Part shown: piece after piece, positions 19,645 to 53,693 of the stretch
Position numbering within the stretch: the stretch's first letter is position 1
Layout of the letters: every line of letters starts with the position of its first letter
Source: Candidatus Omnitrophota bacterium
Lineage (GTDB): Bacteria; Omnitrophota; Gorgyraeia; 2-01-FULL-45-10
Assembly (NCBI GenBank): GCA_030695905.1
Contig: JAUYOL010000001.1
Location: 66,023-130,022 of the forward strand
Direction: 5' to 3'
DNA length: 64,000 bases
The notes under the pieces: generated by a model
The model's database searches: none
The model's input: the letters and a program-made list of their open reading frames with translations, nothing else
Told to the model about the DNA's origin: nothing
Position numbers and translations under genes: made by a program

Positions 19645-19654
19645 CCCTTAGACG

Positions 19655-20749: not shown

Positions 20750-20754
20750 TATTT

Positions 20755-30550: not shown

Positions 30551-30588
30551 GCTGGCGTAGCTCAGTTGGTAGAGCAGCGGTTTCGTAA
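30551..30588 (+). mobile_element. attL: 38-nt 5' fragment of tRNA-Thr(CGT), identical to 53618-53655, ending at anticodon loop
   Basis: gctggcgtagctcagttggtagagcagcggtttcgtaa is identical to the 5' part of the intact tRNA-Thr. It is preceded by a TATAAT (30531-30536) that fits the original tRNA promoter. Confidence 0.7.
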
Positions 30589-31181
30589 TGGAAACAGGGC
30601 AGTTTTCGTAACCCATTGATATTGTTGCAACTGCGTTATTTCACTGTGAGTTACGTCGCAATTCGAGTTGTAGCAATCTGGACGAATCTGTGTCATTCTG
30701 GCTATGTTTTTATCACAAATTTAGCACAACGACCCCGCGTCGTCATTGCGAGGCCCGAAGGGCCGAAGCAATCTCAATCGCGGTGTAATGATCGCAGTAG
30801 CCGACGTTTTAACGTCGGCTACGTCTGTATAGATGCATAGAAGTGGGGTTATTTGCGTCCACGTCGCGTCTGGCGGGCATGATCAGGTCAGTCTATGCTT
30901 ACGGGTCCTTGGAAGGGGGGTCGGGGTGCGGGTCGGGCGAGGCGCAGGTTGTCAGTGATTTCAGGTTTGAAAAAGCGTGTCCATGTCAATTCATCTAAGG
31001 ACACACTATCAGCATAGGTGATTTGGGACGTCCTTTCCGTCGGAGAATGGCAATATTTTGCGTCAAAAATTATCATCGCCGGGAGGGCCAAAACAGCCGT
31101 TTTTAGGGACATTTTGCTGATTTTTAAGAAATTTTTTATTACAAGTTTGTTATCATTTGTAACAAAGCGTATAGGTGATTT

Positions 31182-31634: not shown

Positions 31635-31853
31635 ATGGAGGATAAAATGTCAAAGATAGGAGCCTCACACATGGATATCGTAAAAAAATTAGAGCTGTAT
31701 CGCTTGGAGAATAAGATTACCCAGCAGGCATTGGCTAAAGAGCTTGACGTAGCCTTTTCTACTGTCAGTAGGTGGTTTAACGGCAAGACAGTTCCCAGCA
31801 AAATTCAGCAGTATCATGTAGAAAAGTATCTGAGGAAGAAGGTGGGAGTATGA
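31635..31853 (+). CDS. XRE-family HTH regulator
   Basis: ITQQALAKELDVAFSTVSRWFNG HTH_3 motif. Confidence 0.7.
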   Translation: MEDKMSKIGASHMDIVKKLELYRLENKITQQALAKELDVAFSTVSRWFNGKTVPSKIQQYHVEKYLRKKVGV

Positions 31854-33205
31854 AATTCACAGAAAGCGAAATCGTAGAGCTCAAAACATCGACATCAGAG
31901 CTCAAAGAGGCGATCATTTCATTGGGGGCCATGTTGAACAAGCATGGCAAGGGCACAGTTTATTTCGGCATCGGTGATAATGGTGCCGTTTTGGGACAAC
32001 AGATCGGCAAATCAACCATAAAAGATGTTTCAAAAGCCATCAGTGATTGGATTGAACCCAAGGTTTATCCTGATATTCAGGCCAAGAAAATACAAGGCAA
32101 GGACTGTATTGTTGTTAAAGCCAGCGGACATGATGTCGTGTATTCGGCCCGCGGACGATACTATTTACGGATGGGAGAGGAAGATAAGAAACTTTCGGTT
32201 GATGAACTAAGGCATCTGGTTGAAAAGAAAAATAACTATGCCTATTCATGGGGTGCTGAGCTTTCTAATTTTTCACTATCAAAGGTTAGCGTTGCGACGG
32301 TTAAGAAGTTTGTTGAGAAAGGCCGCAAGGCCGGACGTATTGAATACGCTTATGATTCGGCGCATAACGTCCTTAATAAAATTCACCTACTCAAGGGTAA
32401 AAGATTGCTTAACGCGGGTCGGGCGCTATTTTGTGAAGACAGTGGTGTTGAAGTTCAAGCGGCTGTCTTTGCCGGTAAAGATAAAACGACATTCGTCGAT
32501 ATTCAGAGTTTTCGCGGGCCTCTTTTTAGTTTGATCGAACGGTGCGAAGTTTACGCCAAAGAACACATTAACTGGCGCGCTGATCTTTCCGGTAGCACAA
32601 GGGTGGAAATCCCGGAGGTTCCCGTCCGTGCTATGAAGGAAGCTATTATCAATTCCCTTTGCCACAGAGATTTTTATAATCCTAAAACGAACGAGATCGC
32701 TATTTATCGAGATAGGATCGAAATTTATAACCCCGGCCAGTTTCCTTTTGACCATGATCCGGACGAGTTCATCGCAGGTCATGGTAAAAGCTATCCCAGA
32801 AACCCACTGATTGCGGAAGCTTTTTATCTGGCTAAGGATATTGAGCGGTGGGGGTCAGGCTTGCGGCGTATCAAGGAAGAATGCGATGCCGCGGGTGTGA
32901 AGGTTGCCTTCGAGAAGGTATCTACCGGCTTTCAGGTGACGTTTTATCGGTCAGAAGCCGACACTACCCCTCAAAAGGGCGGAGAAACTGGGGAAAAAAC
33001 TAGGGTAGAAACTAGGGTAGAAACTAGGGTAGAAATAATCAAAATTATGAAAGAAAATCCTCGCGTTACAGTAGGAGATATTGCGAAGGCGACGGGATTG
33101 ACCATAAAAGGCGTTGAGTGGAACATCAAGGATCTTAAGCAGAAAGGCTTGATTAAGCGTATCGGACCTAATAAGGGCGGCCATTGGGAAGTGGTGACGC
33201 AATAA
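31850..33205 (+). CDS. AlbA_2 (Schlafen-like divergent AAA)/HATPase_c_4 protein with C-terminal wHTH
   Basis: N-terminal ESEIVELKTS...GKGTVYFGIGDNG pattern of the AlbA_2 domain. C-terminal HTH. Internal TRVE x3 repeat. Confidence 0.55.
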   Translation: MKFTESEIVELKTSTSELKEAIISLGAMLNKHGKGTVYFGIGDNGAVLGQQIGKSTIKDVSKAISDWIEPKVYPDIQAKKIQGKDCIVVKASGHDVVYSARGRYYLRMGEEDKKLSVDELRHLVEKKNNYAYSWGAELSNFSLSKVSVATVKKFVEKGRKAGRIEYAYDSAHNVLNKIHLLKGKRLLNAGRALFCEDSGVEVQAAVFAGKDKTTFVDIQSFRGPLFSLIERCEVYAKEHINWRADLSGSTRVEIPEVPVRAMKEAIINSLCHRDFYNPKTNEIAIYRDRIEIYNPGQFPFDHDPDEFIAGHGKSYPRNPLIAEAFYLAKDIERWGSGLRRIKEECDAAGVKVAFEKVSTGFQVTFYRSEADTTPQKGGETGEKTRVETRVETRVEIIKIMKENPRVTVGDIAKATGLTIKGVEWNIKDLKQKGLIKRIGPNKGGHWEVVTQ

Positions 33206-35189: not shown

Positions 35190-36725
35190 ATGGCAAAAAA
35201 TAAGAATACAAATGGTGATTTGAACTTTGAGCCGAAGCTGTGGCAGACGGCTGATAAGATGCGTAATAACATGGACGCTGCCGAATATAAGCATGTGGTG
35301 TTAGGGCTTATCTTCCTTAAATATATATCAGATGCCTTCAGTGAGCTTTATCAGAAATTAGCTGGTACCAAAGGCGCGGACGCTGAGGATCCGGACGAAT
35401 ACAGGGCCGAAAACGTATTCTACGTCCCAAAAAAGGCCCGATGGGATTATCTGCAGAAAAACGCGAAACAGCCCACCATTGGCAAGTTTATTGATGATGC
35501 AATGGATGAAATCGAGAAGGATAACTCCACCCTGAAAGGCGTTCTTCCTAAAAACTATGCCCGGCCGGCCCTTGATAAACAGCGTCTCGGAGAACTCATC
35601 GACCTTATTGGGACAATTGGCCTTGGTGACAAAGAAAATCGAAGCAAGGACATCTTGGGCCGTGTATATGAGTATTTCCTGGGCCAATTTGCGGATGCGG
35701 AGGGCAAGAAAGGCGGACAATTCTATACTCCGCGCAGTATAGTGCGCTTGCTTGTCGAAATGCTCGAGCCATATAAAGGTCGGGTATTTGATCCATGCTG
35801 CGGATCGGGCGGCATGTTCGTCCAAGGCGAGAAATTTGTGCAGATACATGGTGGCCGAATTGGCGATATTGCCGTATATGGACAGGAATCAAACCAAACA
35901 ACATGGCGTCTTTGCAAAATGAATCTTGCTATTCGTGGTATCGATGCCAACATCGCATGGAACAACGAAGGCAGCTTCTTAAATGACGCTCACAAGGACC
36001 TTAAGGCCGACTTTGTCATCGCTAACCCTCCGTTTAACGACAGCGACTGGAAGGGCGAACTTTTACGCGAAGATATTCGCTGGAAATATGGGACGCCACC
36101 TATGGGCAATGCAAACTTTGCATGGGTTCAACACTTCATTCATCATCTTTCACCCACAGGGCTGGCTGGCTTTGTCTTGGCTAATGGCGCTATGTCGTCT
36201 AACGCTTCAGGTGAAGGCGATATCAGAAAAAGTATCATAGAAGCAGATATCGTGGATTGTATGGTGGCCCTACCCTCACAGCTTTTCTATAACACTATGA
36301 TACCGGCATGTCTTTGGTTTATCGTGCGTGATAAGAAAAATCACAAATTCAGAGATCGACGCGGTGAAACACTTTTTATCGACGCTCGCAATATGGGCGC
36401 CATGATCGACCGCAGGCACCGCGAACTTACGGACGACGATATTACCAAGGTCGTTGGCACATATCATGCTTGGCGTAGCAAGGGTGGTAAATATAAGGAT
36501 ATAGCCGGATTCTGCAAATCAGCGAAACTATCAGAAATTCAAAAGCATGGCCACATTCTCACCCCGGGCCGTTATGTGGGGGCTGCTGAGGTTGCGGAGG
36601 ACGATGAGGTATTTGAAAATAAGATGAAGCGTCTCACGGGTGAGTTGTCAGAGCAGTTTAAACAATCGGATAAGCTTGAGGCAGAGATCAAAAAGAATCT
36701 CAAAGGCTTAGGATATGAAATTTGA
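35190..36725 (+). CDS. hsdM: type I restriction-modification N6-adenine methyltransferase subunit
   Basis: HsdM N-terminal domain. Catalytic NPPFN. SAM motif [10 protein letters not shown]. Confidence 0.9.
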
Positions 36726-36755
36726 AAGCTAGAGAATATTATTCCGATAGTAAAA

Positions 36756-37619
36756 ATGGCGGTTTTTATGTATGCATATAATTTTAAACCGAAACAGAAA
36801 GCGATAAATTTTAAAGAAATTTTTGTTGTAATGCCATTCGGAAGCAAATACGACGATATTTATGAGAAATTGATTGTGCCAGCAACTGAAAAAGCGAATG
36901 GCATACTGTCTTATAGTGGTAGTCAGCGGTTGCTTCCCTACAGATCCAAAGATGATATACGAACAACTTCTGGCTGGATTAATGTATTAGAGCATTTATT
37001 AACGGCGCAAATAGTTCTCGGGGTCCTTACTGATAATAATCCTAATGTGTTTTATGAGCTGGGGATAGCGCACGCTACAGAACCAATTACTCGTCAAATC
37101 CTCGTAGCGCCGAAACAATATGAGCGGCAATTTGATTTAAAAGATCTTATTTACTACGAGTATGAAGATGAGCTTGATAAAAGTATTGACCCATTGGCTA
37201 GTCGAATAGCAGACGCTATCAAAAGCTACAACATTGATGAGGAAAAAAAGATTAACCAAGCACGAATGCTCATCGGTCCTTATGAATTTGAGGTGCTGAT
37301 GACGCAGGGAAGCAAAAGGAACTTTGTATTGCATACATCAGTAAAAGGCCGTGAAGACTACGAGAAAGAACTTTTGGCAAGGTTGGGCGAAGAACATTTA
37401 AAAGGAGCGTTTGAAAGGCATGTTCCTGCAATAGCCAATCTTTGTAGCCACGGGTTTCTTGGCCTTCACACATCTTCCGAACGAAAGGACGATAAAACCG
37501 TTGTTCATTTTTCTTATCATTGGACAGAGTTAGGCAATAGCTTACTTTATTTTATGAAATTAATACCGATTGAGGAATTGAGAGCTAGGCGCGATGGAAT
37601 GCCAGCATATTTTGATTAA
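36756..37619 (+). CDS. hypothetical protein inserted between hsdM and hsdS; N-terminal TIR-like / nucleoside 2-deoxyribosyltransferase-like pattern
   Basis: IFVVMPFGSKYDDIY ... VLGVLTDNNPNVFYELGIAHA resembles the NDT/TIR-like (SLOG-fold) signature. Weak assignment. Confidence 0.45.
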   Translation: MAVFMYAYNFKPKQKAINFKEIFVVMPFGSKYDDIYEKLIVPATEKANGILSYSGSQRLLPYRSKDDIRTTSGWINVLEHLLTAQIVLGVLTDNNPNVFYELGIAHATEPITRQILVAPKQYERQFDLKDLIYYEYEDELDKSIDPLASRIADAIKSYNIDEEKKINQARMLIGPYEFEVLMTQGSKRNFVLHTSVKGREDYEKELLARLGEEHLKGAFERHVPAIANLCSHGFLGLHTSSERKDDKTVVHFSYHWTELGNSLLYFMKLIPIEELRARRDGMPAYFD

Positions 37620-37623
37620 ATCT

Positions 37624-38937
37624 ATGAACAAAAATTTCAAACAAACAAAACTTTGTGAAACTCCTGAAGGGTGGGATATCCAAGCCATTGCGGATTTACC
37701 CATTGAGATTATTGATGGTGATCGAGGGCTAAATTATCCTAAGAAAGATGAATTTAAAAAACAGGGGTTTTGTCTATTTCTTAGTACTAAAAATGTCCCA
37801 GGAGAACATTTTGATTTTACCGAAGCTGATTTTATTAACGAGGAACGGGATCGTCTCTTACGAAAAGGTAAATTAAAAAAAGAAGATATTGTCCTTACAA
37901 CGCGTGGCACAGTAGGTAATATTGCGTATTATCATGAACAAATTCCTTACGAACACATTCGTATAAATTCTGGAATGGTTATAATTCGCAATATGGGAGA
38001 CAAATTTGATACGGGTTATCTATGCCATCTTTTGAAAAGCCCTATAGTGAAACAGCAATACCTTAGCTTTGCTACTGGATCGGCACAACCACAGTTGCCG
38101 ATCAGGGATATTAACAAAATTAGACTAACAGTACCTTCTATTTTAGAACAGCGTGCCATTGCCAAAATCCTTTCTGACCTTGATGATAAAATAGAACTCA
38201 ATCACCGGATGAACAAAACCCTCGAATCCATCGTGCAGGCGACTTTTAAGCGGTGGTTTGTAGATTTTGAATTTCCAGATGAACATGGTAATCCATATAA
38301 AACATCTGGTGGAAAGATGACTGACTCTGATCTCGATGAGATCCCTGATGGATGGACTGTTAAGGAAATATCTGATTGCGGAGAAATTGTATGTGGAAAA
38401 ACACCTCCGACGGTTGACAAAGACAATTATGGCAATGATTTATTCTTTATAACCATACCAGATATGCGCGGGCAAGCGTTTGTAATAAAAACGGAACGAA
38501 AACTCTCTAAAAAAGGAGCTTCGACGCAAAATAAAAAAGAATTGCCGGCTCTAACTATTTGCGTAAGTTGCATTGCGACCCCCGGCCTAGTTTCCTTGAC
38601 CAGCGCCCCCAGCCACACAAACCAACAAATTAACAGCATTGTTTGTAATAAAAATATTAGCCCATTTTTTATGTACTACACAATGCTTTATAAGAGTGAA
38701 GAAATAAAGACTATGGGCCTTGGTGGTACCGCAACGCTAAATCTTAATACGGGAAATTTTGCGCGCATTAAAATAGTCGTACCGGAAAAGACAATCACGG
38801 ACGCTTTTCATAAAACAGCAACACCTTTTATGGAAAAGATTTTGTCTAATTTGAAAGAAAATGAAAGTCTTTACATTATTCGCGGTTCTCTTTTACCAAG
38901 GTTAATGTCAGGAAAAATAAGGCTAGGTAAAAATTAA
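37624..38937 (+). CDS. hsdS: type I restriction-modification specificity subunit
   Basis: Two target-recognition domains separated by conserved coiled regions. Possible alternative start at 37594. Confidence 0.75.
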   Translation: MNKNFKQTKLCETPEGWDIQAIADLPIEIIDGDRGLNYPKKDEFKKQGFCLFLSTKNVPGEHFDFTEADFINEERDRLLRKGKLKKEDIVLTTRGTVGNIAYYHEQIPYEHIRINSGMVIIRNMGDKFDTGYLCHLLKSPIVKQQYLSFATGSAQPQLPIRDINKIRLTVPSILEQRAIAKILSDLDDKIELNHRMNKTLESIVQATFKRWFVDFEFPDEHGNPYKTSGGKMTDSDLDEIPDGWTVKEISDCGEIVCGKTPPTVDKDNYGNDLFFITIPDMRGQAFVIKTERKLSKKGASTQNKKELPALTICVSCIATPGLVSLTSAPSHTNQQINSIVCNKNISPFFMYYTMLYKSEEIKTMGLGGTATLNLNTGNFARIKIVVPEKTITDAFHKTATPFMEKILSNLKENESLYIIRGSLLPRLMSGKIRLGKN

Positions 38938-38955
38938 TTTTATAGGAGGCGGCAA

Positions 38956-40416
38956 ATGGTGAAAAGTTCTTGGACTTCAGATGATACAAAAACATTAGAT
39001 ATTTTACTGGATTACCAAAATTCTCGAATAGACGCCAATGAGAAATCATCGCAGGAAGAAATAAGAAAGTTATTATTAAAGACAGAAGATGTCATTGACC
39101 TTGCTAATAGCATAATCGCTACTAAAGGGCTTTTGCGAGGAGAAAGAATAATTATTGTTAAAGAAGATGGCAATTCTATAGTCCTAGAAGGCAATCGCAG
39201 AACTTGTGCTTGCCAACTATTACTAAGCCCAGAATTAATTCCAAAAGAATTTAGAACAAAATTCCCTATTTGTCATGACGGAGGGATAAAAAAAGAACTA
39301 GAGCATTTAAAATCTGATATTGCGCCAGATAGATTGGCAGCGGAAATTACTATTACCAAGAGGCATACTGAACCGGGAGTTTCGCAATGGACTCCCATTG
39401 CGAAACAAAGAAGAATTACGCGTCTTGTTGAGGCAAGGAGATCTATTGAAGAGTTAATGTCTGAATTTGGAATGACACGGTCAAACATTTTGAAAACTTT
39501 GAAAGATTATCATATTTTTCAATATGCAAAAAATCTTTCCATTTGGAACAAGGTTGAAAAAGATATTTTGAACGATCCAACTCTCTCAATCAATCCTTTC
39601 ACTCGGTTTTTTGATTTAAAGGGTGTTAAGAAAGCCTTGGAATTGAAACATAAAGAAACTGGCGAATTGGAAATCGAGATAAAAAAAGAACTTTTTGACA
39701 AAATCATAGCTTTTATTGCCCGCGAATTTTTAATTCCCGATAAAGGCACAAGTAAGCTTGGTGCAAATACTCGCACAACGCCAGAAGAGTTGTTTCAAAG
39801 TATTTCTTCACATGATAAAGATATAAGAGCATTTCTAAAAAAGAAGCTAAAATTGGATAATTTGAAGAATAAGGAAAAAGCTAAATCTGGGGCCGAATCA
39901 GCAGAACAAACAGGTACGGCTAGGACTTCAGGTGCAACAGCTTCTACGCAAACATCGGCAAAGTCTGGAAAGTTCTTTGAAAATCTTCCCTGTCCTTTAA
40001 AAGATAACCAGCTATTGTTAGTTGTGAATGAAATATCGGATATAAATTATAAGAAATATCGCCTATCAGCAACCTTTCTTGTAAGAGCTTTAGTTGAAAG
40101 AATCTTGAATCATTGCATCGACAAATATGCGCTTAAGAAACAATTGCTAAAGGAGTTTTACACTAAGCGCAAGGGGTGTAAAGGCATAGAACCAGGGCTA
40201 GAGTTTGTGGTTGATTTTTGTATAAAAAATCATGATCAAATGTTCAATGTAAATACAGTACGAAATATTCTAAGAAAATGGAAAGGGGATAAGGATCTAT
40301 TAGATATTATCATTCATGGTCGTTGGGCCAATCCTAGCATTACAAACCTTGAACATTTCGCATCTCTCATTCGACCTACGGTTGAACAAATTCTTAGCGG
40401 GAATGCTTTGAAATGA
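38956..40416 (+). CDS. ParB/Srx-like N-terminal domain protein (486 aa) embedded in RM operon
   Basis: VLEGNRRTCA matches the ParB-N/DGQHR-like DGxxR signature. Low-complexity Ser/Thr/Ala linker. Unknown C-terminal domain. Confidence 0.45.
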   Translation: MVKSSWTSDDTKTLDILLDYQNSRIDANEKSSQEEIRKLLLKTEDVIDLANSIIATKGLLRGERIIIVKEDGNSIVLEGNRRTCACQLLLSPELIPKEFRTKFPICHDGGIKKELEHLKSDIAPDRLAAEITITKRHTEPGVSQWTPIAKQRRITRLVEARRSIEELMSEFGMTRSNILKTLKDYHIFQYAKNLSIWNKVEKDILNDPTLSINPFTRFFDLKGVKKALELKHKETGELEIEIKKELFDKIIAFIAREFLIPDKGTSKLGANTRTTPEELFQSISSHDKDIRAFLKKKLKLDNLKNKEKAKSGAESAEQTGTARTSGATASTQTSAKSGKFFENLPCPLKDNQLLLVVNEISDINYKKYRLSATFLVRALVERILNHCIDKYALKKQLLKEFYTKRKGCKGIEPGLEFVVDFCIKNHDQMFNVNTVRNILRKWKGDKDLLDIIIHGRWANPSITNLEHFASLIRPTVEQILSGNALK

Positions 40417-41342
40417 AAATCGAGCAAGAAAATAAAGCTCTGAATAATAAAACAATAACAACCAATCTGAGCCCATTAAGGTATCCAGGTTCAAAGCGGA
40501 AGATAGCTTTGTATATTAGAGAAATCCTTCAACATAACAAGCTAACTCCCGATCTCCTTGTGGAACCATTTGTCGGTGGCGGTAGCATTTCTCTATTTTT
40601 TATTGCCAATAATTTTGTAAAAAAAATTATTATTTCAGATAAAGATAGATTAATTAGCAGTTTTTGGAAGGTAGTTTTTTCTAATCCAGACAGCATCAAC
40701 CGTTTCATTCAACATGTAAAAATTAATCTTAAAAATTTTGATAAGTATAAAAATATCGCAAAAGATACTGAGAATTATAATGAAACTGAATTAGCAAAAG
40801 CATGCATTTTTCTCAACAGAACTAGCTTCTCAGGCGTTTTAGCTAATCCTGCTGGCCCTCTTGGCGGAAGAGAGCAGAGGTCGGACTACAAAATCGATTG
40901 CCGCTTTAATAGAAAAACCATCGTAAAGAAAATTAGTTGCATCGCATCTTTTAAGAGCAGGGTTATTGTTCGTAATGGCCACTGGAAAGATATAATAAAG
41001 TATGCAGAAGGTTGGCGCAAGGATAATAAGGGGTATAAAAAAACATTCATATACCTAGATCCGCCTTTCTATTTAAAAGGAGAAAGTTTATATAGAAATT
41101 ATTTTGAAACCAATCAACACGAAGAACTATCTAAAGAATTGGAGAAAATAACCTGCCCATGGATTTTAAGTTATGATAATGTCTTACAAGTTAGAAAACT
41201 ATATGAGAATTTTAAAAACATCGTTTATATCGACATGCCATATTCAATTAATTCGCATGCTAATAGAATTGAAAAAGAATTGATAATTACTAACTTAAGT
41301 TTGCCCAAGGTAAACGAAATGAGCTTTCATAATAAGCAATGA
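40413..41342 (+). CDS. D12-class (Dam-like) N6-adenine DNA methyltransferase
   Basis: RYPGSKRK ... EPFVGGGS (motif I) and YLDPPF (motif IV). Confidence 0.7.
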
Positions 41343-44300
41343 AAAAAATTACAGAATATGAAATCGAGCAGGTCGCCTTAGATATCCTTTCAGAGCTTAA
41401 ATATAAGGTTATCTACGGGCCGGATATTGCCCCGGATGGGCCGAAGCCAGAGAGACAGAGTTATGCCGATATTGTCCTACTTGTTAGGCTTCGCGAGGCA
41501 ATAAATCAGTTTAATCCTAATATTCCTGCCGAAGCAAAGGATGAAGCAATAAAGCGGATATTACGGACTGAAAGCCCTGACCTTGTAATAAATAATCATC
41601 GCTTTCACAAGATGCTTGTTGATGGTGTTGATGTAGAATATCGCAAAGACGGCCGGATTACCGGCGATAAGGTATGGCTCTTCGACTTTGCAAATCCGAA
41701 TAATAATGAATTCTTAGCGATTAACCAGTTTACCATTATCGAAAATAATATTAATCGCAGGCCTGATATTATTCTCTTTGTGAATGGTCTGCCGATCGTG
41801 GTAATAGAGCTAAAAAATCCGGCTGATGAAAATGCCACTACCTTAACCGCTTTCAAACAATTCCAAACGTATAAACTCCAGATACCCTCTCTTTTTAAGT
41901 TTAACGAGATTTTAGTCGCAAGCGATGGTATTGACGCAAAAGCTGGGACGATAACCTCTGACTGGGAGCGATTCTTGCCATGGAAGACGATCGATGGCAC
42001 CGAGAAGGCATCAAAGGTAATGCCACAGATAGAGGTTTTATTAAAAGGCATGTTTAATAAAAAGGTTTTGCTCGATCTTATCCGGTACTTCGTCGTCTTC
42101 GAGCAGGATAAGGATACTAAAGACAATACGGTTAAAATTTCAAAGAAGATTGCGGCTTATCATCAATATCATGCCGTTAATAAAGCCATCGACGCTACTA
42201 TTAAGGCATCCCGAGCCAGGGGTGATAAGCGTTGCGGTGTAGTTTGGCACACACAGGGTTCGGGCAAAAGCCTTATTATGGCCTTTTATACGGGTAAACT
42301 TGTTTTGAGTTTGGACAATCCCACAGTAGTTGTCTTAACCGATAGAAATGACTTAGATGATCAGCTCTTCGGCACATTCTCCCGATGCAATGAATTGTTG
42401 CGACAAGCGCCAGCGCAAGCAGAATCTCGTGCAAAACTGCAAGAATATCTTAAAGTTTCATCCGGCGGCATTGTATTTACCACTATTCAAAAATTCTTCC
42501 CGGAAGAAAAAGGCGACCAATACCCTCTTCTATCCGAACGTCGTAATATAATTGTCATCGCCGATGAGGCTCACAGAAGCCAGTATGATTTTATTGATGG
42601 TTTTGCCAAGCACATGCGCGACGCCCTACCAAATGCTTCATTTATCGGATTTACTGGCACACCCATAGAACGACACGATCGTAACACTATTGCTGTCTTT
42701 GGTGATTACATTGATATTTATGATATTGAGCAGGCAGTTAACGATGGCGCTACAGTTCGGATATACTACGAGAGCCGGCTTGCTATGCTTGAGCTAAAGG
42801 ATGAGGAACGGCCTAAGATTGATCCCGAGTTTGAAGAAGTCACTGAAGGCGAAGAGTTCAAGAAAAAGGAAAAGCTGAAGACCAGATGGGCCCGGCTTGA
42901 AGCCATTGTTGGAAGTGAAAAGCGTATTAAGCAGATCGCCAAAGATATAGTGAATCATTTCGAAAGCCGTCTTACGGCTGTCGAGGGTAAAGGTATGATT
43001 GTCTGTATGAGCCGGCGAATAGCAATTGATCTTCATAATGAAATTATTAAGCTAAGACCTCAATGGTATAACAAAGATGATGACAAGGGCTTCCTAAAGG
43101 TTATTATGACGGGCTCTGCCAGCGACCCTGTCGAGTGGCAAGAACATATCAGAAATAAACAAAGGCGCAGGGATATTGGTGATCGTATGAAAGATCCAAG
43201 CGATCCGCTGAAATTAGCAATCGTGCGGGATATGTGGCTTACAGGATTTGATGCACCGTCGCTTCATACAATGTATATAGACAAGCCAATGCGGGGCCAC
43301 GGTCTTATGCAAGCTATTGCGCGCGTAAATCGTGTATTTAAGGATAAGCCGGGTGGTCTTGTAGTCGATTATTTAGGTATAGCCGATGATTTAAAGCGTG
43401 CGCTCGCAGAGTATACAGAAAGCGGCGGTAAAGGCAAGCCAGCGTTTAAGCAAGAAGACGCGGTGGCTTTAATGCTCGAGAAATATGAAGTCGTTTGTGG
43501 GATGTTTGATAAATTCAATTATAAAAAATTCTTTCCCGCCCCTGTAAAAGACAAGATGTCTATTATAACACTGGCACAGGAGCACATATTAAAGCAGAAA
43601 AATGGCAAGGAGCGATTGATGGCCTATGTGACACAACTCTCGCAGGCCTTCGCGCTTTCGGTACCGCATAAAGAGGCCTTAAAAATAAGGGATGACGTGG
43701 GATTCTTTCAAGCAGTCCGGGCCCGGCTGGCAAAGTATGAGACCGGCACAGGCAAAACCGAAGAAGATCTCGACTCGGCAATAAAGCAAATTATCTCAAA
43801 GGCTATCATTTCGGACAAAGTAATTGATATATTCGAAGCAGCCGGTCTTAAGAAGCCGGACATTTCTATTCTGTCGGACGAATTTTTGGCCGAAGTTAAA
43901 GGGATGCCACATAAGAACCTTGCCTTCGAACTTTTAAAGAAATTACTCAATGATGAAATCAGGACGAGATCTCGCAAAAATCTTATTCAGGGCCGATCAT
44001 TCGCTGAAATGCTCGAGAAGGCCATTAAGAAGTACCAGAATAAGGCCATAGAAGCAGCCAAAGTCATCGAAGAACTGATTGAGCTTGCCAAAAAGATGCG
44101 CGAGGCCGATAAGCGTGGCGAAGATCTCGGGCTGAATGAGGACGAGATTGCGTTTTACGATGCTCTGGAGGTTAATGACAGCGCTGTAAAGGTATTAGGA
44201 GACGAGATCTTAAAAACTATTGCCCGGGAGCTCGTTCAGACGGTTCGTAATAATGTTAGTATCGACTGGACCTTAAAGGAAAGCATTCAGGCAAAGCTAC

Positions 44301-44932
44301 GGGTTATGGTAAAAAGGATATTACGCAAGCACGGCTACCCTCCGGATAAGGAAAAGAAAGCCACCGAGACTGTTTTAGAGCAGGCTACCTTATTAGGCAA
44401 GGACTGGGCCGAGAAACCAGAAGAATCCGTAGAAAAATCAGATCTATTCTTTAGCGATGTGATCGATAAGGCGACTTTCGAAGAGGATTATTTGCCTATT
44501 TATGATTTGCAGGCGGTTGCGACATCGTTCCGAGAGCAAACCACACCAACAATTAAAGGCTGGAAGCCGATAAAGGGCCGTAATATTAATAAAGATATGT
44601 TTATCGCTCAGGTTGTCGGTAAATCTATGGAGCCAACGATACAAGATGGCAGCTGGTGTATTTTCCGTTTTGATCGTGGCGGTTCGCGCAATGGTTTGGT
44701 AGTGCTTGCCGAATCGCGGTTAGTATCTGATCCGGAAACGAGTCAAAACTTTACCATTAAGCGCTACAAGAGCGAAAAAGAAGATCTCGGCCAGGGCCAG
44801 TGGAGACATAAACGTATTACCCTATCGCCGGACAATAAGACTTTTAACGATATTGTGCTTGAAAACGTTGCCGGTGACGATTTTCGGATTGTAGCTGAAT
44901 TTATAGAGATATTGAAGATTAGGAGTATTTGA
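41339..44932 (+). CDS. hsdR: type I restriction enzyme R subunit fused to C-terminal LexA/S24-like peptidase domain
   Basis: Res-III/DEAD motifs (GSGKS, DEAH) and helicase C. The last ~147 aa (44489-44932) carry GKSMEP ... KRYK ... the S24 Ser/Lys dyad pattern. Confidence 0.8.
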
Positions 44933-45013
44933 CCAAGGGTGATTAGATAGGTGCCTTGAAAGATAGTGGGAAACGTATCGAGTAAAATATTTGTAGCCAA
45001 AAGGTATATTTTC

Positions 45014-46768
45014 ATGACAATGGTTGCAGTATGTCTTTTCAAAGAAGGTGGCGTATTAATCTCCGATTCTCGGGCAACCAAGGATAATAATGGTAAATAC
45101 GCATTTAGCGATACTCTTCAAAAAATTCTCTACATTCGCAAAAATATTGCTCTTTCATATGCAGGTGACGTTCAAATTGCCGGAGATGTTGCAAGAGAAG
45201 TACGGTTAAAGGTTATCGGAGATGACAATCTTAAAGAGCCGCAAACCCTAGCGGCGAAAATACCGACAATTGCCACCCTATCATATCTCAAATATGTATT
45301 TATTAGAGGTAGGCCCTGCGCTGTATATTTACTGCTGGCAGGAGTTGATTCTTCGGGAAAAACATATGCATGGGTTTTTAAGTCACCCGGTTTTAAACCA
45401 ATAAAGATTGAAAATGGTTTCGATGTAATTGGTTCGGGAGAGGTAGTTGTTCCATATTTGGAAAAAAGTTATAAAAATATAGATAGCTCCCATAACGATC
45501 TTAAGTCTAAAGCAGATGCATTAATAGTCGGGCTTGAGAGTGAGCTACAAAAACACGATGTAAACACAGTCGGTGGACTTTTTCAGGTTGTTCTTCTTAC
45601 CCCCGAAGGAATACGTCCCCTTCGTTATGGGTTCATGGACTTAGATCCACTTAAAAGTGGTGATGCAAAAAGTATGGAATTGATCAAGGGGAAATGGACA
45701 CAGACAAATGAGGCAACGCGAGAAAAAGTAGAGCTTTTAGAACCATCTAAACTTGTCACCAATGTTTTTAAAGAGACGCAATTTCATGAATATGCGCCAC
45801 CCAATCAGGATAAAAAAATTCCAAAATGGTATTCATACTATTTTATTACATGTTCAAAAGTCAAAAGGGATATTACTACGACAGAATTTCAGGGTGTATT
45901 AACACAAATAGCCAGTTTAAGATATCCGGCCACTATACCCATTATTGCATCCATGGGATTTTGGGGTACTGCCGGTGAGAATCAAATAGAATTGCGAGTG
46001 GAAAAAGACGGAAAACAAGAAACGATTTATTCCAAAAAAATCCATACAGAATATTTACCCGAAATAGTTGAATTGGATGCAGAAATAAAGCTTGTTATTA
46101 GTTCGCCAGGGCCCGCATTCTTAGAGTTCTTAATTAATAAGCAGGTTCTTGCTAGAAAAGCTCTTTATTTTGGCAATCTCAACGGCATTCCAAAATCCGA
46201 TGGGGATAAAGAAGAATTTCTCAGAGAGCGTCAATCACAGCTCACAGAGGAACACCGACAACTTTCGGATGCTTTTTTGAATGACAAAAATTCTGTTACT
46301 GAATATTTCGTCTTATGTGAGAACTGCATTCATGAGGGAAATGTAATTAAATTTATCAATGAAATGAAAGCGGTTTATTGGAAATCATACCCGCTACCTT
46401 TACGGGTATATATTGCTAGTGCAATCAGAATGCCAAAAGGCAAACATAGTATCCGCATAGAGTTAGTGAATGCGGCGACTCGATATAACTCAAACATAAC
46501 AAACACTACTGTAGAAAACACATCCGATTGCTTAGTTACTCCTATCCATGGCGAAATGGTTGTGAATATACCAGAGCCCGGTATTTATTTTTTCAATCTA
46601 TACGTTGATGGCAAATTTATTACAAGTGCGCTTCTTCCAGCGGAGCTCTCGAAAGCCAAATATTCTTACAGTCTGACAGATGAGGGAGAAAAAATGGTTG
46701 AGTCTGGAGAGTTAATAATTTTGCCAAGACGGTCTATTTTAGAAAGCGAAATAAAGAATAACAAATAA
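45014..46768 (+). CDS. HslV/proteasome-beta-like Ntn-hydrolase domain fused to ~400-aa unknown C-terminal domain
   Basis: N-terminal MTMVAV ... ISDSRAT ... K ... SYAGDVQIAGD ... IGSGE aligns with HslV Thr1/Asp17/Lys33/GSGG. No adjacent HslU. Confidence 0.55.
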   Translation: MTMVAVCLFKEGGVLISDSRATKDNNGKYAFSDTLQKILYIRKNIALSYAGDVQIAGDVAREVRLKVIGDDNLKEPQTLAAKIPTIATLSYLKYVFIRGRPCAVYLLLAGVDSSGKTYAWVFKSPGFKPIKIENGFDVIGSGEVVVPYLEKSYKNIDSSHNDLKSKADALIVGLESELQKHDVNTVGGLFQVVLLTPEGIRPLRYGFMDLDPLKSGDAKSMELIKGKWTQTNEATREKVELLEPSKLVTNVFKETQFHEYAPPNQDKKIPKWYSYYFITCSKVKRDITTTEFQGVLTQIASLRYPATIPIIASMGFWGTAGENQIELRVEKDGKQETIYSKKIHTEYLPEIVELDAEIKLVISSPGPAFLEFLINKQVLARKALYFGNLNGIPKSDGDKEEFLRERQSQLTEEHRQLSDAFLNDKNSVTEYFVLCENCIHEGNVIKFINEMKAVYWKSYPLPLRVYIASAIRMPKGKHSIRIELVNAATRYNSNITNTTVENTSDCLVTPIHGEMVVNIPEPGIYFFNLYVDGKFITSALLPAELSKAKYSYSLTDEGEKMVESGELIILPRRSILESEIKNNK

Positions 46769-47056
46769 AATCACCCCCCCCAATCAACTTTTCTTATGCG
46801 CGCATTTATATACAGCGAACGATGCATAATAATTTAAATGTTTACGGGTCCTTGGAAGGCGGGTCGGGCGCGGCACAAATATTTATTAAAATAGAGACAG
46901 CGCCGTTTTTCAAAAATAAATAGTCGCTGGCCCTATTTTCAGTTAATGAAGTCTAACCAATGGGAATAGTGACCGGACGCTATTCGGACACCGGTAATTG
47001 CATGTTATATATTCACAAAGTCAGGTTAGTAGTGTATAATATAATTGAGGTGAAAA

Positions 47057-47755
47057 ATGGGCAAGGTATACAAAAATGCTCCATTAGTTGAAGCGGTTTT
47101 TGAAATGCGCTTTCCCGCTGATCTAAACATAGAATGCGCCAGATCAAATTTCTATGAGAGCATAAAAAAGGATTTTCCTAACATCTTTGTCCCGAATGCT
47201 CAATTCGGACAGGCGCTTGCGCTACAACCATATGAGTTTAAGAGCGCGGATCATAAGAAAGTCATACGTTTTTCAATAAATAGCTTCGCTTTCCATACGA
47301 GTGATTACTCAGGCGGGTTTGAGCTATTCGAAGAAGAGTGTCTTAAATACATTAATCTGTTCATAAAATTCTTTAAAATCTCTACATTGAACCGCATGGG
47401 TCTTCGTTATATTAACAGAATAGCTATTATGCGCAAAGATGGCTTAATACCAATCGGTGAATACTTAAACTTTGGTTTTGAACTGCCGGACAGCATGTCA
47501 AGCGATCCAGAGATATTTCATGCGTTGCTTATTAACAAAGTGGGTGATGGTAAGTTGCGAACTCTTATTCAATATCAAGAAGTACCGCCCAAGAACGAAG
47601 TAATACTGTTAGATTTCGATTATTACTACGAGGACAAAATAAAGGCTATAGATTTCCCTAAATATCTTACGCAGGCGCATAAGCATATAAAAGAGGATGT
47701 GTTCAAGAAATTGATAAGCGAAAATTATATGAAAGCGTTAGAGGCTAAAGGATGA
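47057..47755 (+). CDS. TIGR04255-like conserved hypothetical protein
   Basis: N-terminus YKNAPLVEAVFEMRFP is the signature I recall for that family. First gene of three overlapping genes. Confidence 0.45.
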   Translation: MGKVYKNAPLVEAVFEMRFPADLNIECARSNFYESIKKDFPNIFVPNAQFGQALALQPYEFKSADHKKVIRFSINSFAFHTSDYSGGFELFEEECLKYINLFIKFFKISTLNRMGLRYINRIAIMRKDGLIPIGEYLNFGFELPDSMSSDPEIFHALLINKVGDGKLRTLIQYQEVPPKNEVILLDFDYYYEDKIKAIDFPKYLTQAHKHIKEDVFKKLISENYMKALEAKG

Positions 47756-48264
47756 TAAAGACAATATCTGCTACTTTTCACGGCGAAGACTATACGAAAT
47801 TAGCAAGAAATCTATCTTTCAGGGTAGAAGAAAATGCTGTGCCTGCAGGGGTTAAGTTGGATAGAAATGTCTTTGAAGAGGTGTTGGATTTAATGCGCGT
47901 TGAATATCAGAAGCCTGATGACGTGATGCCTGCTAAGCCAGATGCGCTGTCATTGGACTGTATTGTACCCGACGCAGTTTTTACGGTAAATCAGAGCGTT
48001 TTTACATATCCTATTTTTTCATTACCACACTGCCAACTAAAGCACCCTATACAGATTGTCATTGAAGCAAAAGAGGACGGTAATGTTATTGTTTGGAGCG
48101 ATGAGTTCGAGTTGTCGGGCTTGGGCGGAACAAAGGAAGAAGCGCTTGCGGATTTCAGTTCTTTTGTATTCTCTGATCGTAATTCATTAAGAAAGATACC
48201 GACGGATAAACTTAGTGATGGCGCGAAAGATTTATTGCGTAGATATGAAGAATATTTAGAATAG
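47752..48264 (+). CDS. hypothetical protein (operon partner)
   Basis: ATGA overlap with the upstream gene. Confidence 0.4.
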   Translation: MIKTISATFHGEDYTKLARNLSFRVEENAVPAGVKLDRNVFEEVLDLMRVEYQKPDDVMPAKPDALSLDCIVPDAVFTVNQSVFTYPIFSLPHCQLKHPIQIVIEAKEDGNVIVWSDEFELSGLGGTKEEALADFSSFVFSDRNSLRKIPTDKLSDGAKDLLRRYEEYLE

Positions 48265-48554: not shown

Positions 48555-48693
48555 ATAAATAATAAAAGCGAATAATAGGCAACCCGAGGGGTTGCTTTTT
48601 TATTGTATTCAAAAATAAATAATCGATAGTCCTATTTTTTATTTGACCTACCTGAAATATCGCGATTTTCCCGTTTAAAGCCAATCCCCATTA

Positions 48694-49066
48694 TTGCTAC
48701 TCCGTAGCAACGACCCCATTGTCAAAATAATTCGTTATTGTAAGATAGGTATAGAAACACATAGGTTGAATTTGTCCATTTTGTGGTAACGACCCTATTG
48801 CAAAAGAAACCTGCTGTTGTAGAATTGTGATGAGGCGGGGTTTTTCTTTTTTTATCCCCGACACTTTAACAGGAAAACCGGTATATACGTTGTAGGAGGG
48901 GGCATTTGAGCGAAAAAATCTGTATATACGTTTTGAGAAATAATTGCGGAAACCCCGACATTTTAGCAGGAAAACCGGAATATACGTTATAGGCGCGGAT
49001 GAAGAAAGTGAAAAAAGTGAAAATATTTCCGGCACTTTTGCATAAAACGTCGTATATAGCTAGTAG
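48694..49066. repeat. iteron-like direct repeats and GTATATAC palindromes upstream of replication gene
   Basis: Two ~41-bp direct repeats at 48856 and 48952. Four GTATATA(C/G) cores. 24-bp direct repeats at 48704 and 48784. Confidence 0.5.
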
Positions 49067-49077
49067 GAGGCATTGAA

Positions 49078-49313: not shown

Positions 49314-51689
49314 ATGGAAGTCGAGAGAAGAGTAGAGAAGAGATGGATCAGCGAGAATATTCCTGCCGAATTAAAGGATCTGCCGATCTGGGTTGGTTTT
49401 AAGTTTATTCCGCAGGAAGGTCAAAAGCCCCGCAAAGAGCCGTTCAATGCCGCGACCGGCGGCAAAGCCTGTTCGAATAATCCAAAAACATGGCGGTCAT
49501 TTGATGAGGTTATCGGAAGGGCCGAATCAATGCATTTTAATGCCATTGGGATTGGGCTTTCTGAGCCGTACGTTGGCGTAGACCTCGACCATTCCGTTGT
49601 TGATGGAGATATCCAGCCATGGGCCCAAAAGATCATATCGATCATCGATAGTTATACCGAATTCTCTCCCAGCAAAACAGGTGTTCATATTCTTTGTAAA
49701 GGTACGCTTCAAAAGGGACGCAAATTCAGCGCACTTAATATCGAAATGTATCAGAAGACCCGGTTTTTTACGGTTACCGGAGACGTTGTGCCTGAATGCA
49801 GGTCAGAGATCATGGATCGAAGCGGGCAGATCACGAAATTATTCGAAGAGTGTGAGCAGAAGGACAATGAGAAGAGGCAATCAAAATCAATCCTCGACCG
49901 CATATTGAAAAGCCAAGACGCGGAGAAGTTTCAGAAGCTTTTCTCGGGCCAGTGGCAGGATTTATATCCTTCTCAGTCTGAGGCAGACCTTGCGTTGTGC
50001 AACAAGCTGGCCTTTTGGACCGGCAAGGATCCGGCGCTTATGGATTCGCTCTTCCGTAAATCCGGCCTTATGAGGCTCAAGTGGGATGAGAAGCATTTCG
50101 GTGACGGCAGGACATACGGCCAGTCGGTAATAGAGAAAGCGATTAGCGGTTGCCGAGATGTTTATAGCGGCTCTCAAGAGATAACCACAAAACATAAACT
50201 TACACAGGGCGAGATCATCACCCGTGATTGTGAAGAGAAGATTACGGATTTCTTCAGGGATCAGCATGGCAATACTTTCGTCGTGCTTCCGGTTGAGGGC
50301 CACCTTGAGGTATGCCCGACATCAAGCGGTCGCTTTAGGAATTGGAAAGCAACACGTTTTCGTGAGAGGTTCGGTGTCCCGCCAAAAAACGAAGCCATTA
50401 TTCAGGCGCGGATTCAAGTGGAGGCGCGCTGTGGGTGCGGCAAGCAGGTGGAATTATTTAATCGTATAGGCTGGCATGAAGGCAAAATCTATTATGACCT
50501 TACTACTCCTGATTATCGTGGTGTAGCTATTGATGAAAACGGCTGGAATGTCGTCTTCTTACCGCCAATATTCAGGCGTTACCAGCATCAAGCACAGCAG
50601 GTCATTCCGGTTAATGACGGAGATCCGAAAGAGATCTTACGCTTTTGTAATGTGGGTCCGGATGATCACTGCCTTTTTATGGTCGCGATCGCGTCTTTCT
50701 TCATTCCGAACATCCCACATGTGATCATAAGCCAGACCGGCGAGCAGGGTTCCGGCAAGTCCAACAATTCCCGCAAGATCAAGGGTTTGGGCGACCCATC
50801 ACGCGTTATGCTCATCTCGACTCCAAAGGACTTGGAGCAGGCGCAGATGACGGCCGAGAAGCACTGGATCAGCACTTTCGACAATATCTCCAAAATTCAT
50901 GAATGGTTTAGCGACTTCCTGTGTCGTGGCGTTACCGGCGAGGGCGACATGAAGCGCAGTCTTTATACCAATGACGATGAGTTTATCCGGTCATACCGCC
51001 GTTGTTTTGTCTTAAACGGCATCGGCGTTTCAATGTGGCGCGGGGATTTGCTCGACCGCGCGGTTATCTTCGATATACCGGTCCTAAAGGATGCCCGGCC
51101 GGAGCGAGTCATGGATGACGAATGGCAAAAAGCCTTGCCCGGGATCCTCGGAGGCTTCTTTACAGCTATTTCAAAGGCTATGAGAACAGTTTCGCAAGTT
51201 ACCGGCCATGAGAAGTTCCGCATGGCCGATTTTGCCCAGTGGGGCGGCGCTCTGGCTCAAGAGCTCGGCTATTCGAGAGACGAATTCTTTAAGAAATATC
51301 AGGAATCCGTCAAAGGTAAATGGCAGGACACAGCCGAGGACAGCGTCTTTGCCAAAAAGATAATGGATCTTATGGATAGGCGCAACGGCTATTGGGAGGG
51401 TTCAGCGGCAGAGCTTTTGCATGAGATAACGCCGGATAGCGGTGAAGAGAAGGGCATACCCAAAACAGCCAAGTGGCTTTCAACTGAGCTGGTGCGTATC
51501 GCTCCGGTCATGCGTAATGTTGGGGTTGATATTGTGAAGAATGAGAAGCGCGAGCCGGGCACCGGCAGGCGTATCTTTATACTTAAAAGAACAGGGCCAA
51601 AGAGCTGTGAGGATCGGTGTGAGCAGAGTGTGAGCAGCGGCTTGTTTTGTGAGGATCGCGTGGGGGTAGACAGTGATCGGCCGTTCTGA
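49314..51689 (+). CDS. prim-pol (bifunctional primase/polymerase)-type replication protein with P-loop NTPase domain
   Basis: N-terminal LPIWVGFK ... VDLDH ... SPSKTGVHIL prim-pol pattern. GEQGSGKS Walker A in the middle. Confidence 0.65.
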   Translation: MEVERRVEKRWISENIPAELKDLPIWVGFKFIPQEGQKPRKEPFNAATGGKACSNNPKTWRSFDEVIGRAESMHFNAIGIGLSEPYVGVDLDHSVVDGDIQPWAQKIISIIDSYTEFSPSKTGVHILCKGTLQKGRKFSALNIEMYQKTRFFTVTGDVVPECRSEIMDRSGQITKLFEECEQKDNEKRQSKSILDRILKSQDAEKFQKLFSGQWQDLYPSQSEADLALCNKLAFWTGKDPALMDSLFRKSGLMRLKWDEKHFGDGRTYGQSVIEKAISGCRDVYSGSQEITTKHKLTQGEIITRDCEEKITDFFRDQHGNTFVVLPVEGHLEVCPTSSGRFRNWKATRFRERFGVPPKNEAIIQARIQVEARCGCGKQVELFNRIGWHEGKIYYDLTTPDYRGVAIDENGWNVVFLPPIFRRYQHQAQQVIPVNDGDPKEILRFCNVGPDDHCLFMVAIASFFIPNIPHVIISQTGEQGSGKSNNSRKIKGLGDPSRVMLISTPKDLEQAQMTAEKHWISTFDNISKIHEWFSDFLCRGVTGEGDMKRSLYTNDDEFIRSYRRCFVLNGIGVSMWRGDLLDRAVIFDIPVLKDARPERVMDDEWQKALPGILGGFFTAISKAMRTVSQVTGHEKFRMADFAQWGGALAQELGYSRDEFFKKYQESVKGKWQDTAEDSVFAKKIMDLMDRRNGYWEGSAAELLHEITPDSGEEKGIPKTAKWLSTELVRIAPVMRNVGVDIVKNEKREPGTGRRIFILKRTGPKSCEDRCEQSVSSGLFCEDRVGVDSDRPF

Positions 51690-53617: not shown

Positions 53618-53693
53618 GCTGGCGTAGCTCAGTTGGTAGAGCAGCGGTTTCGTAAACCGCAGGTCGATGGTTCAACTCCATTCGCCAGCTCCA
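53618..53693 (+). tRNA. tRNA-Thr (anticodon CGT); attR within 5' half
   Basis: Cloverleaf with loop ttCGTaa, T-loop TTCAACT and CCA. Confidence 0.85.

Follow-up and report, generated by a model that had tools for sequence, protein, structure and literature searches.

What are three extra genes doing inside a type I restriction–modification (RM) operon? The operon in question, hsdM–hsdS–hsdR, belongs to a metagenome-assembled genome (MAG) of Candidatus Omnitrophota (GenBank assembly GCA_030695905.1, contig JAUYOL010000001.1) and lies in a stretch of 64,000 nucleotides that we analysed as a whole and refer to here as the window. An earlier note on this DNA, made without database searches, described a gene with a TIR/nucleoside deoxyribosyltransferase (NDT)-like N-terminus between hsdM and hsdS, followed by a ParB-N-like gene and a D12 adenine methyltransferase gene between hsdS and hsdR, and suggested that they form a composite defence locus. 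By combining profile searches, structural models and the genomic neighbourhoods of homologues, we find that this suggestion stands, as the genes include a pair with PADLOC matches to the PD-Lambda-5 defence system and with ParB-N and HEPN folds, as well as an NDT/TIR-like gene in the hsdM–hsdS gap. We put at about 0.75 the probability that the locus is a layered defence operon on a roughly 23-kb tRNA-Thr island, in which a type I RM scaffold carries two self-sufficient nested modules. The least expected feature of the locus is an S24 peptidase-like tail on HsdR; the earlier note, which covered the RM operon, had missed both this tail and the mobile-island context.

Gene order and junctions

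Six open reading frames (ORFs) follow one another on the plus strand in the order hsdM, orfX, hsdS, PD-Lambda-5_A, PD-Lambda-5_B and hsdR (Table 1). Their coordinates and lengths are exactly those first described, and the same genes were called independently in a public assembly of identical DNA, where orfX starts at Met5 (283 aa). The overlapping stops and starts that had been claimed for the operon are present at three of the five junctions: A/B and B/hsdR each share a 4-nt ATGA overlap, and orfX and hsdS overlap by 26 nt (or are separated by 4 nt if hsdS begins at an internal ATG). Short gaps take their place at the other two, 30 nt between hsdM and orfX and 18 nt, containing an AGGAGG ribosome-binding site, between hsdS and A. 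Given the shared strand and these short or overlapping junctions, the nested genes are probably co-transcribed with the hsd genes.

Judging from its domains, the type I set is complete and apparently intact. HsdS has two target-recognition domains (Pfam Methylase_S in two stretches; Specificity_I, 4.3e-109, over aa 93–445), and the body of HsdR, which also matches T1R_D3-like in Pfam, comprises a PD-(D/E)xK nuclease (D...ELK), a superfamily 2 (SF2)/SWI2-SNF2 motor (DEAH) and a T1RH-like C-domain, with the motifs read in the translation.

A PD-Lambda-5 pair between hsdS and hsdR

By their profile matches, the 486-aa and 309-aa genes that fill the hsdS–hsdR gap (proteins A and B hereafter) are the known system PD-Lambda-5. 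Besides the match given in Table 1, protein A is matched by 21 additional PD-Lambda-5_A sub-models in PADLOC. Protein B matches the Dam subfamily in NCBIfam (1.3e-20), and its translation retains the S-adenosylmethionine-binding motif I (FVGGGS) as well as the catalytic motif IV (DPPF) in intact form; its match to the Pfam family MethyltransfD12 (5.6e-14) bears out the D12 adenine methyltransferase proposed for this gap.

Protein A is harder to recognize. It has no Pfam or NCBIfam domain match, even at E ≤ 10, and its family profile, compared with PDB sequences, gives no ParB match and otherwise only spurious or helix–turn–helix (HTH)-type ones. An AlphaFold model built from 42 homologues (predicted local distance difference test (pLDDT) score of 87), together with a fold search, shows a ParB-N/Srx-like domain followed by an HTH/helical middle, a disordered linker (residues 310–336) and a C-terminal HEPN-fold domain. 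The ParB-N part carries the motifs LDxQNxR (residues 18–24) and GNRR (79–82), in which D19, N22, R24 and G79-N80-R81-R82 are invariant across the family and correspond to a ParB-type arginine box. Chromosomal ParB/Spo0J is among the fold matches of the protein, and its homologues carry ‘ParB/Srx’ names in RefSeq and UniRef. The ParB-N-like label originally given to this gene is thus supported by the modelled fold, the GNRR box and the names of homologues, and not by Pfam. Its C-terminal domain has a four-helix HEPN fold with R377, E381 and H454 invariant in the family alignment, residues that could form a variant HEPN site.

PD-Lambda-5 was functionally selected in Escherichia coli as a prophage-borne system that protects against nearly all phages tested, and its authors describe it as a highly compacted ‘RM+Abi’ (Abi, abortive infection) system; its cloning needed an mrr-deleted host (Vassallo et al. 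2022, PMC9519451), which implies an active adenine methylase. The copy in the window shares with this prototype the A-then-B order, PADLOC models that match both proteins, a D12 adenine methylase as protein B and the ParB-N plus HEPN architecture, a likeness that holds at the profile level only and not by direct sequence comparison. Whereas the prototype comes from a prophage hotspot, the window copy is nested in an Omnitrophota type I RM operon, and the canonical HEPN motif Rx4-6H is not evident in its protein A. ParB–HEPN fusions, and operons of HEPN, ParB and methylase genes, had been catalogued computationally in 2013 (PMC3710099).

An NDT/TIR-like protein between hsdM and hsdS

The product of orfX has no match in Pfam (scanned to E ≤ 10), NCBIfam or PADLOC, and no direct match at E ≤ 10 to the Pfam models Nuc_deoxyrib_tr, TIR_2, ThsB_TIR or DUF4062 in particular; its family profile finds only spurious or HTH-type matches among PDB sequences. 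It belongs to a family with at least 277 members, which are all unnamed and lack Pfam domains; Omnitrophota, Nitrospirota, Bacteroidetes, ANME-1 and Bathyarchaeia are among the lineages that encode them.

Its AlphaFold2 (AF2) model (pLDDT 90) has two domains. The N-domain (about aa 18–160) adopts a flavodoxin-like NDT/TIR fold whose matches include MilB, NDT, TIR and TIR-STING, and the C-domain (about aa 175–283) is built of two helices, a beta-hairpin and a further helix, with weak winged-helix matches (TFIIE, RTP). In the N-domain, the motif N95-x-N97-V-x-Y-E101-L-G is invariant, with E101 kept throughout 36 sequences. Its counterpart in a Holophaga protein, which passes the Pfam threshold for Nuc_deoxyrib_tr (31.3 versus 28.8 bits), aligns with it (hhalign 98.8%, E 1.2e-16). 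This conserved NDT/TIR-like motif makes E101 a candidate catalytic glutamate. Because of the profile homology to a Nuc_deoxyrib_tr-positive protein, the label ‘TIR/NDT-like’ is right, with the NDT side favoured on sequence; the fold matches agree with it and Pfam is silent. Among the inserts, Pfam therefore recognizes the methyltransferase and nothing in orfX or protein A. Taken literally, the lack of any ParB- or TIR-like domain hit in these two, in the very searches that the earlier note had proposed, would go halfway towards refuting its reading, a result that the structural and profile evidence overrides.

In more distant relatives, the orfX-like N-domain is joined to TPR-S/MAP3K_TRAF_bd, HEAT repeats or DUF4062, and by domain content these combinations follow the effector-plus-sensor pattern of conflict systems. 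Homologues of full length occur downstream of a Gabija-like ATPase/helicase pair in one locus; in others they have a TIR_2 protein on one side and an Mrr nuclease on the other, or FRG and PLD proteins in these positions, or lie next to a SIR2-like gene or near a type IIG RM system. We consider orfX a candidate single-gene defence protein.

In architecture, the nearest characterized analogue is Swarozyc, in which a DUF4062 TIR-like NADase is combined with an HTH/winged auxiliary domain; binding of this auxiliary domain to the phage portal sets off the depletion of NAD+ (bioRxiv 10.64898/2026.05.01.722283). Both Swarozyc and TIR-STING (CBASS Cap12) share with orfX an N-terminal domain of the TIR/NDT superfamily with a conserved, putatively catalytic glutamate, a small C-terminal sensor-like domain (winged-helix-like in orfX) and a place in defence islands. 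They differ from it in that orfX has no detectable DUF4062 similarity and has its closest sequence relatives in Nuc_deoxyrib_tr, not TIR. Membership of orfX in the Swarozyc/DUF4062 family was rejected, with an hhalign probability of 0.5% against a DUF4062 protein and no Pfam match; by analogy, it may work like Swarozyc without being a member.

Two cassettes that mostly live outside type I operons

To place the A–B pair in context, we fetched 80 metagenomic loci, each encoding a relative of protein A. Wherever more than 1.2 kb of sequence remains beyond A, as in 58 of the loci, B follows without exception; of the 23 loci that extend 3 kb or more to both sides, only 2 contain hsd genes. On the temperate Marinobacter phage AS1 the pair adjoins the integrase gene, and a Vibrio maritimus plasmid carries it between transposase and recombinase genes. 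Full-length relatives of orfX are likewise found outside type I operons (three of three by gene call and three of three genome loci), and only 1 of 80 genome loci with orfX-type relatives has type I RM genes nearby. In that locus (L025), a protein with DUF4062 and NDT-like parts, which are separate domains, lies between hsdS and hsdR. Co-occurrence of homologues of the inserts with type I RM genes, whose complete absence would have counted against the earlier note, does exist, and it is rare. As both units are mostly found elsewhere, in other defence contexts or on phage and plasmid, they are best read as autonomous cargo and not as RM subunits. The three extra genes are indeed present, but as two separate units (the A–B pair and orfX) instead of RM accessories.

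One close relative of the locus, on metagenome contig Ga0209340_1000001 (L088), keeps the hsdS–A–B arrangement, with protein A 82% and protein B 79% identical, while its other junctions hold different cargo: a DUF4062 + HATPase_c_4 protein and two unknown genes between hsdM and hsdS, and TIR_2, one unknown gene and ThsB_TIR between B and hsdR. At the DNA level, window positions 38888–41308 align to L088 with 79.6% identity over 2,422 bp, whereas hsdM and hsdR align in patches only, at 66–70%. The G+C content at third codon positions (GC3) is 0.28–0.35 in orfX, hsdS, A and B, compared to 0.49 in hsdM and 0.45 in hsdR. The shared cassette, the differing cargo and the GC3 values together suggest that the type I operon acts as a scaffold with junctions open to exchangeable cassettes. 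L088 is also an extreme case of embedding in its own right, with eight genes nested in the type I operon (2636–20845 of that locus) and Fic and PLD genes flanking it.

That defence genes nest in type I RM operons is already established, and what is new here is the cargo. On Vibrio cholerae VPI-2, a type I RM operon harbours TgvAB, PrrC in EcoprrI and RloF in Campylobacter are further type I-embedded genes, and a ‘guilt by embedding’ survey (Payne et al.) found that type I RM systems often contain embedded genes, 96.7% of them in the orientation of the host system. PrrC is almost confined to such operons, with EcoprrI as its regulator (PMC3710099). With these loci the window shares same-strand defence genes between hsd genes, on a mobile or defence island. 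It differs from them in that both junctions are occupied and that neither a GmrSD-like system nor an anticodon nuclease makes up the cargo, which consists of PD-Lambda-5 and an NDT/TIR-like gene that lacks annotation; both of these, in contrast to PrrC, mostly occur outside type I operons. For the same reason, and as Pfam finds no ATPase domain in any insert, a PrrC/RloC-type anticodon nuclease, which joins an N-terminal ABC-ATPase domain to a HEPN-type anticodon nuclease at the C-terminus, was set aside.

An integrative island at a tRNA-Thr gene

The 38-nt direct repeats formed by the 5′ half of a tRNA-Thr gene (Table 1) are 23,067 nt apart and bracket about 23 kb, with a G+C content of 0.421 compared to 0.444–0.453 in the flanks. 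Together with the integrase and the primase-polymerase encoded in its right part, these repeats indicate that the whole cluster rides on an integrative island.

Three ~46-nt direct repeats (the other two 87% and 65% identical to the first) lie at 48856–49072, just upstream of the primase-polymerase gene, and could be iterons or the origin of the island. G+C-rich repeats recur at two or three intergenic sites of the island (30895–30946, 46838–46877 and 52073–52091), as a 31-nt element (D6) in two copies at 94% identity and an adjacent 19-nt element (D5) in three copies at 84–89%.

How the modules may work, and what else they could be

In the layered-defence reading, the HsdMSR operon would serve as a transcriptional scaffold, with defence modules nested in its intergenic junctions. 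Methyltransferase B would mark host DNA with N6-methyladenine at a second, short motif, and protein A would attack unmarked invader DNA through its ParB-type nuclease/NTPase domain, with the HEPN RNase fold as an abortive back-up, following the ‘RM+Abi’ logic of the E. coli prototype. The winged-helix C-domain of orfX may sense a phage component and switch on an N-terminal N-glycosidase with Glu101 as its catalytic residue, which, by analogy to TIR-STING and Swarozyc, would deplete NAD+ or the nucleotide pool. Both modules would work without needing the type I enzyme. A second modification activity, a ParB-like nuclease and an Abi-type effector had all been offered as possible roles for the inserts, and all three fit the gene content as predicted from sequence and models.

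Some observations weigh against this reading. No PADLOC defence model matches orfX, and its substrate is not readable from the fold, as MilB, NDT, DNPH1 and TIR score about equally. In the HEPN part of protein A, no canonical Rx4-6H motif is conserved in the family alignment, which makes its RNase activity uncertain. Since hsdS has a GC3 as low as that of the inserts, composition alone cannot split cargo from scaffold. Finally, a promoter scan returned 53 promoter-like sites versus 42.8 ± 6.2 in shuffled sequences and does not resolve the operon structure, and a terminator scan returned fewer than in shuffles, with the further caveat that consensus promoters may differ from Omnitrophota ones. 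These scans are uninformative, so gene spacing is what carries the case for co-transcription.

The nested proteins could instead be functionally dependent on their host operon, as latent effectors that are restrained or activated via the type I enzyme and form one integrated machine with it, firing, for example, when a phage anti-restriction protein disables HsdMSR. PrrC, with its near confinement to type I operons (PMC3710099), is a precedent for such an arrangement, and the tight same-strand junctions, the presence of PD-Lambda-5 at the same hsdS–hsdR junction in L088 and the distant NDT-like protein between hsdS and hsdR in L025 would all fit it. We nevertheless consider it unlikely: no hsd genes are in reach in 21 of the 23 PD-Lambda-5 loci and in 79 of the 80 orfX-type loci, the full-length orfX homologues inspected (three by gene call, three loci) all lie outside type I operons, and PD-Lambda-5 protects E. 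coli when cloned alone (PMC9519451). The neighbourhood counts (2/23 and 1/80) lead us to reject an obligate, PrrC-like tie of either cassette to type I RM.

More doubtful still is that the methylase and ParB/HEPN pair, possibly together with orfX, stabilizes the 23-kb island by post-segregational killing, with defence being incidental. In its favour, pairs of the RM type are well established as addiction modules, an island with an integrase and attachment (att) repeats carries the cluster, and PD-Lambda-5-like pairs are carried by a temperate phage and a plasmid, beside recombinases. The E. coli prototype, however, protects broadly against phages (PMC9519451), and addiction leaves orfX unexplained while being compatible with defence, which it does not exclude. 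We give the least credence to housekeeping roles, with orfX acting as a deoxyribosyltransferase in nucleotide salvage, the ParB-like protein serving the partition or segregation of the island and the D12 methyltransferase being an orphan epigenetic regulator. True NDTs and chromosomal ParB/Spo0J are among the fold matches, and Pfam assigns neither orfX nor the ParB-like protein to a defence family, but the PADLOC PD-Lambda-5 models fit both A and B, and orfX has an extra winged-helix domain, a patchy spread over distant lineages and variable defence genes as neighbours. A partition factor in particular is rejected, as there is no ParA partner and the ParB domain belongs to a HEPN fusion that always comes with a methylase.

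An S24 peptidase-like tail on HsdR

HsdR ends in an S24 (LexA/UmuD-like) module (Table 1) and is about 170 aa longer than the HsdR of L088. Within the tail, a linker starting DLFFSDVI precedes a core with Ser1096 (GKSMEP) and Lys1141 (TIKRY), and Ala1061-Thr1062 occupies the position of the LexA cleavage site. LexA, UmuD and lambda CI share with it the S24 fold signature and the Ser/Lys dyad, and the tail has a putative cleavage-site strand of the Ala-Gly type; in contrast to LexA, the tail comes without a DNA-binding repressor domain and has Ala-Thr where LexA has Ala-Gly.

Searching the tail with phmmer against 1.84 billion representatives gave 1,500 matches at E ≤ 1e-3, of which 773 reach E ≤ 1e-10; nearly every match is at the very C-terminal end of its protein, and the proteins range in length from 120 to 1,878 aa. 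In a sample of these, the partners are HsdR C-domains, other ResIII/SWI2-SNF2 motors and type III-like Res helicases; AlwI, type ISP, MmeI-like type IIL, Mrr, TnsA-like nucleases and RE_endonuc; DUF2075/Schlafen-type helicases with GIY-YIG or NERD nucleases; and a helicase-nuclease with DEAD, MZB and MTES_1575 domains. Over 261 homologues, the dyad is conserved (Ser in 251/253, Lys in 259/260), and the residue that follows Ala/Cys at the cleavage position is Gly in 105 and Thr in 91, with Cys as the first residue in 23. Tails are 61–67% identical between HsdRs whose bodies are only 25–29% identical, which points to module shuffling. We found no description of S24–restriction enzyme fusions in the literature searched, whose coverage was incomplete, so this is no proof of novelty.

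Seemingly stand-alone S24 peptidase genes in three other loci from public assemblies (L168, 3941–7528; L169, 4418–7486; L170, 4265–7363) are the C-terminal ends of hsdR–S24 fusions that gene calling or frameshifts had broken up; the two in NCBI Omnitrophota MAGs are annotated as ‘S24 family peptidase’. A separate Omnitrophota family of stand-alone S24 peptidases was therefore discarded, as at least three such genes are mis-called or fragmented hsdR ends. The type I operon of L170 itself holds nested KAP_NTPase, Peptidase_M78 and DUF4411 genes.

The S24 tail probably gives post-translational control of restriction. That it is a LexA-style autoproteolytic switch, acquired by many unrelated restriction enzymes, is a tentative proposal that we consider more likely wrong than right, although the conserved dyad and cleavage-site strand, and a tail identity above that of the body, are compatible with it. 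Such a switch would be triggered by DNA damage or by filaments of RecA on single-stranded DNA, resulting from self-restriction or phage attack, and cleavage at Ala-Gly/Thr would turn the nuclease either off, as a cis-encoded restriction alleviation, or on. Alternatively, the tail could be a purely structural dimerization module. ClpXP-mediated proteolysis of EcoKI HsdR is a known route to restriction alleviation (PMC4231737). The switch proposal shares with it the idea of proteolytic control of HsdR against self-restriction, but involves a protease domain fused in cis to the restriction subunit, not one that acts in trans.

Other features of the window

Upstream of hsdM, the stop codon of an 84-aa zinc-ribbon-like ORF lies 22 nt away from the operon, and this ORF may be a leader or small regulator gene of it. 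Downstream, starting 34 nt past hsdR, a 600-aa protein combines an N-terminal proteasome-subunit-like (Ntn hydrolase) domain with a C-terminal DUF6941. It has no match among the PADLOC defence models, its GC3 is low, as in the cargo genes, and it may be a further defence gene; one copy of the G+C-rich repeats follows it directly. A functional link between this gene and the S24 tail is unsupported: in L168, the gene that comes after a 73%-identical HsdR–S24 is of the RAMA/DUF4357 type instead.

Beyond the RM operon, too, the neighbourhood is rich in defence genes. An AbiEi/AbiEii-like pair (28217–29699) lies just outside the island, and a protein with Schlafen AlbA_2, HATPase_c_4 and winged HTH parts (31850–33205) is encoded inside it, upstream of the operon; three tandem 12-nt units (AGAAACTAGGGT-like) fall within the 3′ end of this Schlafen-like gene (32983–33030). 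At 47057–48264, a gene of the TIGR04255 family (232 aa) and a 170-aa ORF without matches overlap. The best promoter-like site of the region (47012–47040, 11/12 matches) precedes this pair and the hairpin at 48577–48597 follows it, and the two genes may be a separate unit. Far upstream and unrelated to the RM locus is a c-di-GMP-I riboswitch aptamer (13871–13956, Rfam RF01051, 69.3 bits).

Table 1 Features of the locus and its island, in window coordinates.
Feature	Position	Strand	Evidence and remarks
Left island boundary, 38-nt exact copy of tRNA-Thr 5′ half (att-type direct repeat)	30551–30588	+	100% identical to 53618–53655
Zinc-ribbon-like ORF, 84 aa	34913–35167	+	Weak Zn_ribbon matches only; gene in public assembly
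hsdM, type I RM methyltransferase subunit, 511 aa	35190–36725	+	N6_Mtase 2.6e-107, HsdM_N 3.2e-28 (Pfam); MTase_I 7.7e-223 (PADLOC); GC3 0.49
orfX, 287 aa	36756–37619 (likely start Met5 at 36768)	+	AF2 model, fold and profile comparison
hsdS, specificity subunit, 447 aa	37594–38937 (alternative start ATG 37624)	+	Methylase_S twice (Pfam); GC3 0.31
PD-Lambda-5_A, 486 aa	38956–40416	+	PADLOC PD-Lambda-5_A 1.9e-31
PD-Lambda-5_B, 309 aa, predicted D12-class N6-adenine DNA methyltransferase	40413–41342	+	PD-Lambda-5_B 2.9e-81; MethyltransfD12 5.6e-14
hsdR body, aa 1–1023 (whole ORF 41339–44932, 1197 aa)	41339–44407	+	HSDR_N 1.2e-47, SWI2_SNF2 3.5e-84, T1RH-like_C 1.6e-134; TIGR00348 2e-191
S24 (LexA/UmuD-like) module, HsdR aa 1024–1197	44408–44932	+	Peptidase_S24 1.1e-7, 32.0 bits versus 23.3 cut-off
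600-aa protein	44966–46768	+	Proteasome 2.4e-8, DUF6941 2.1e-5 (Pfam); archaeal proteasome alpha/beta ~1e-4; GC3 0.31
Terminator-like hairpin	48577–48597	+	9-bp stem, 5 GC pairs, then T-run; first strong one downstream of the cluster
NrS-1-type primase-polymerase	49314–51689		Right part of island
Tyrosine integrase, right island end	52513–53616	+	Phage_integrase 3e-32, Int_N
Intact tRNA-Thr(CGT)	53618–53693	+	First 38 nt are the right repeat copy

Implications

Read as a layered defence operon, the locus would stack three or four barriers of different mechanism in what is probably a single transcription unit, carried by a mobile island, and would combine sequence-specific type I restriction, a second, methylation-guarded ParB/HEPN system and an NDT/TIR-type effector in a phylum, Omnitrophota, that is poorly studied. 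The orfX family, with at least 277 members that join an NDT-like domain to a winged helix, occurs in contexts of the kind that mark a new single-gene defence system. Restriction autoimmunity has so far been explained mainly by ClpXP-dependent restriction alleviation in E. coli; should the S24 tail prove responsive to RecA or to damaged DNA, this problem would have an answer encoded in cis.

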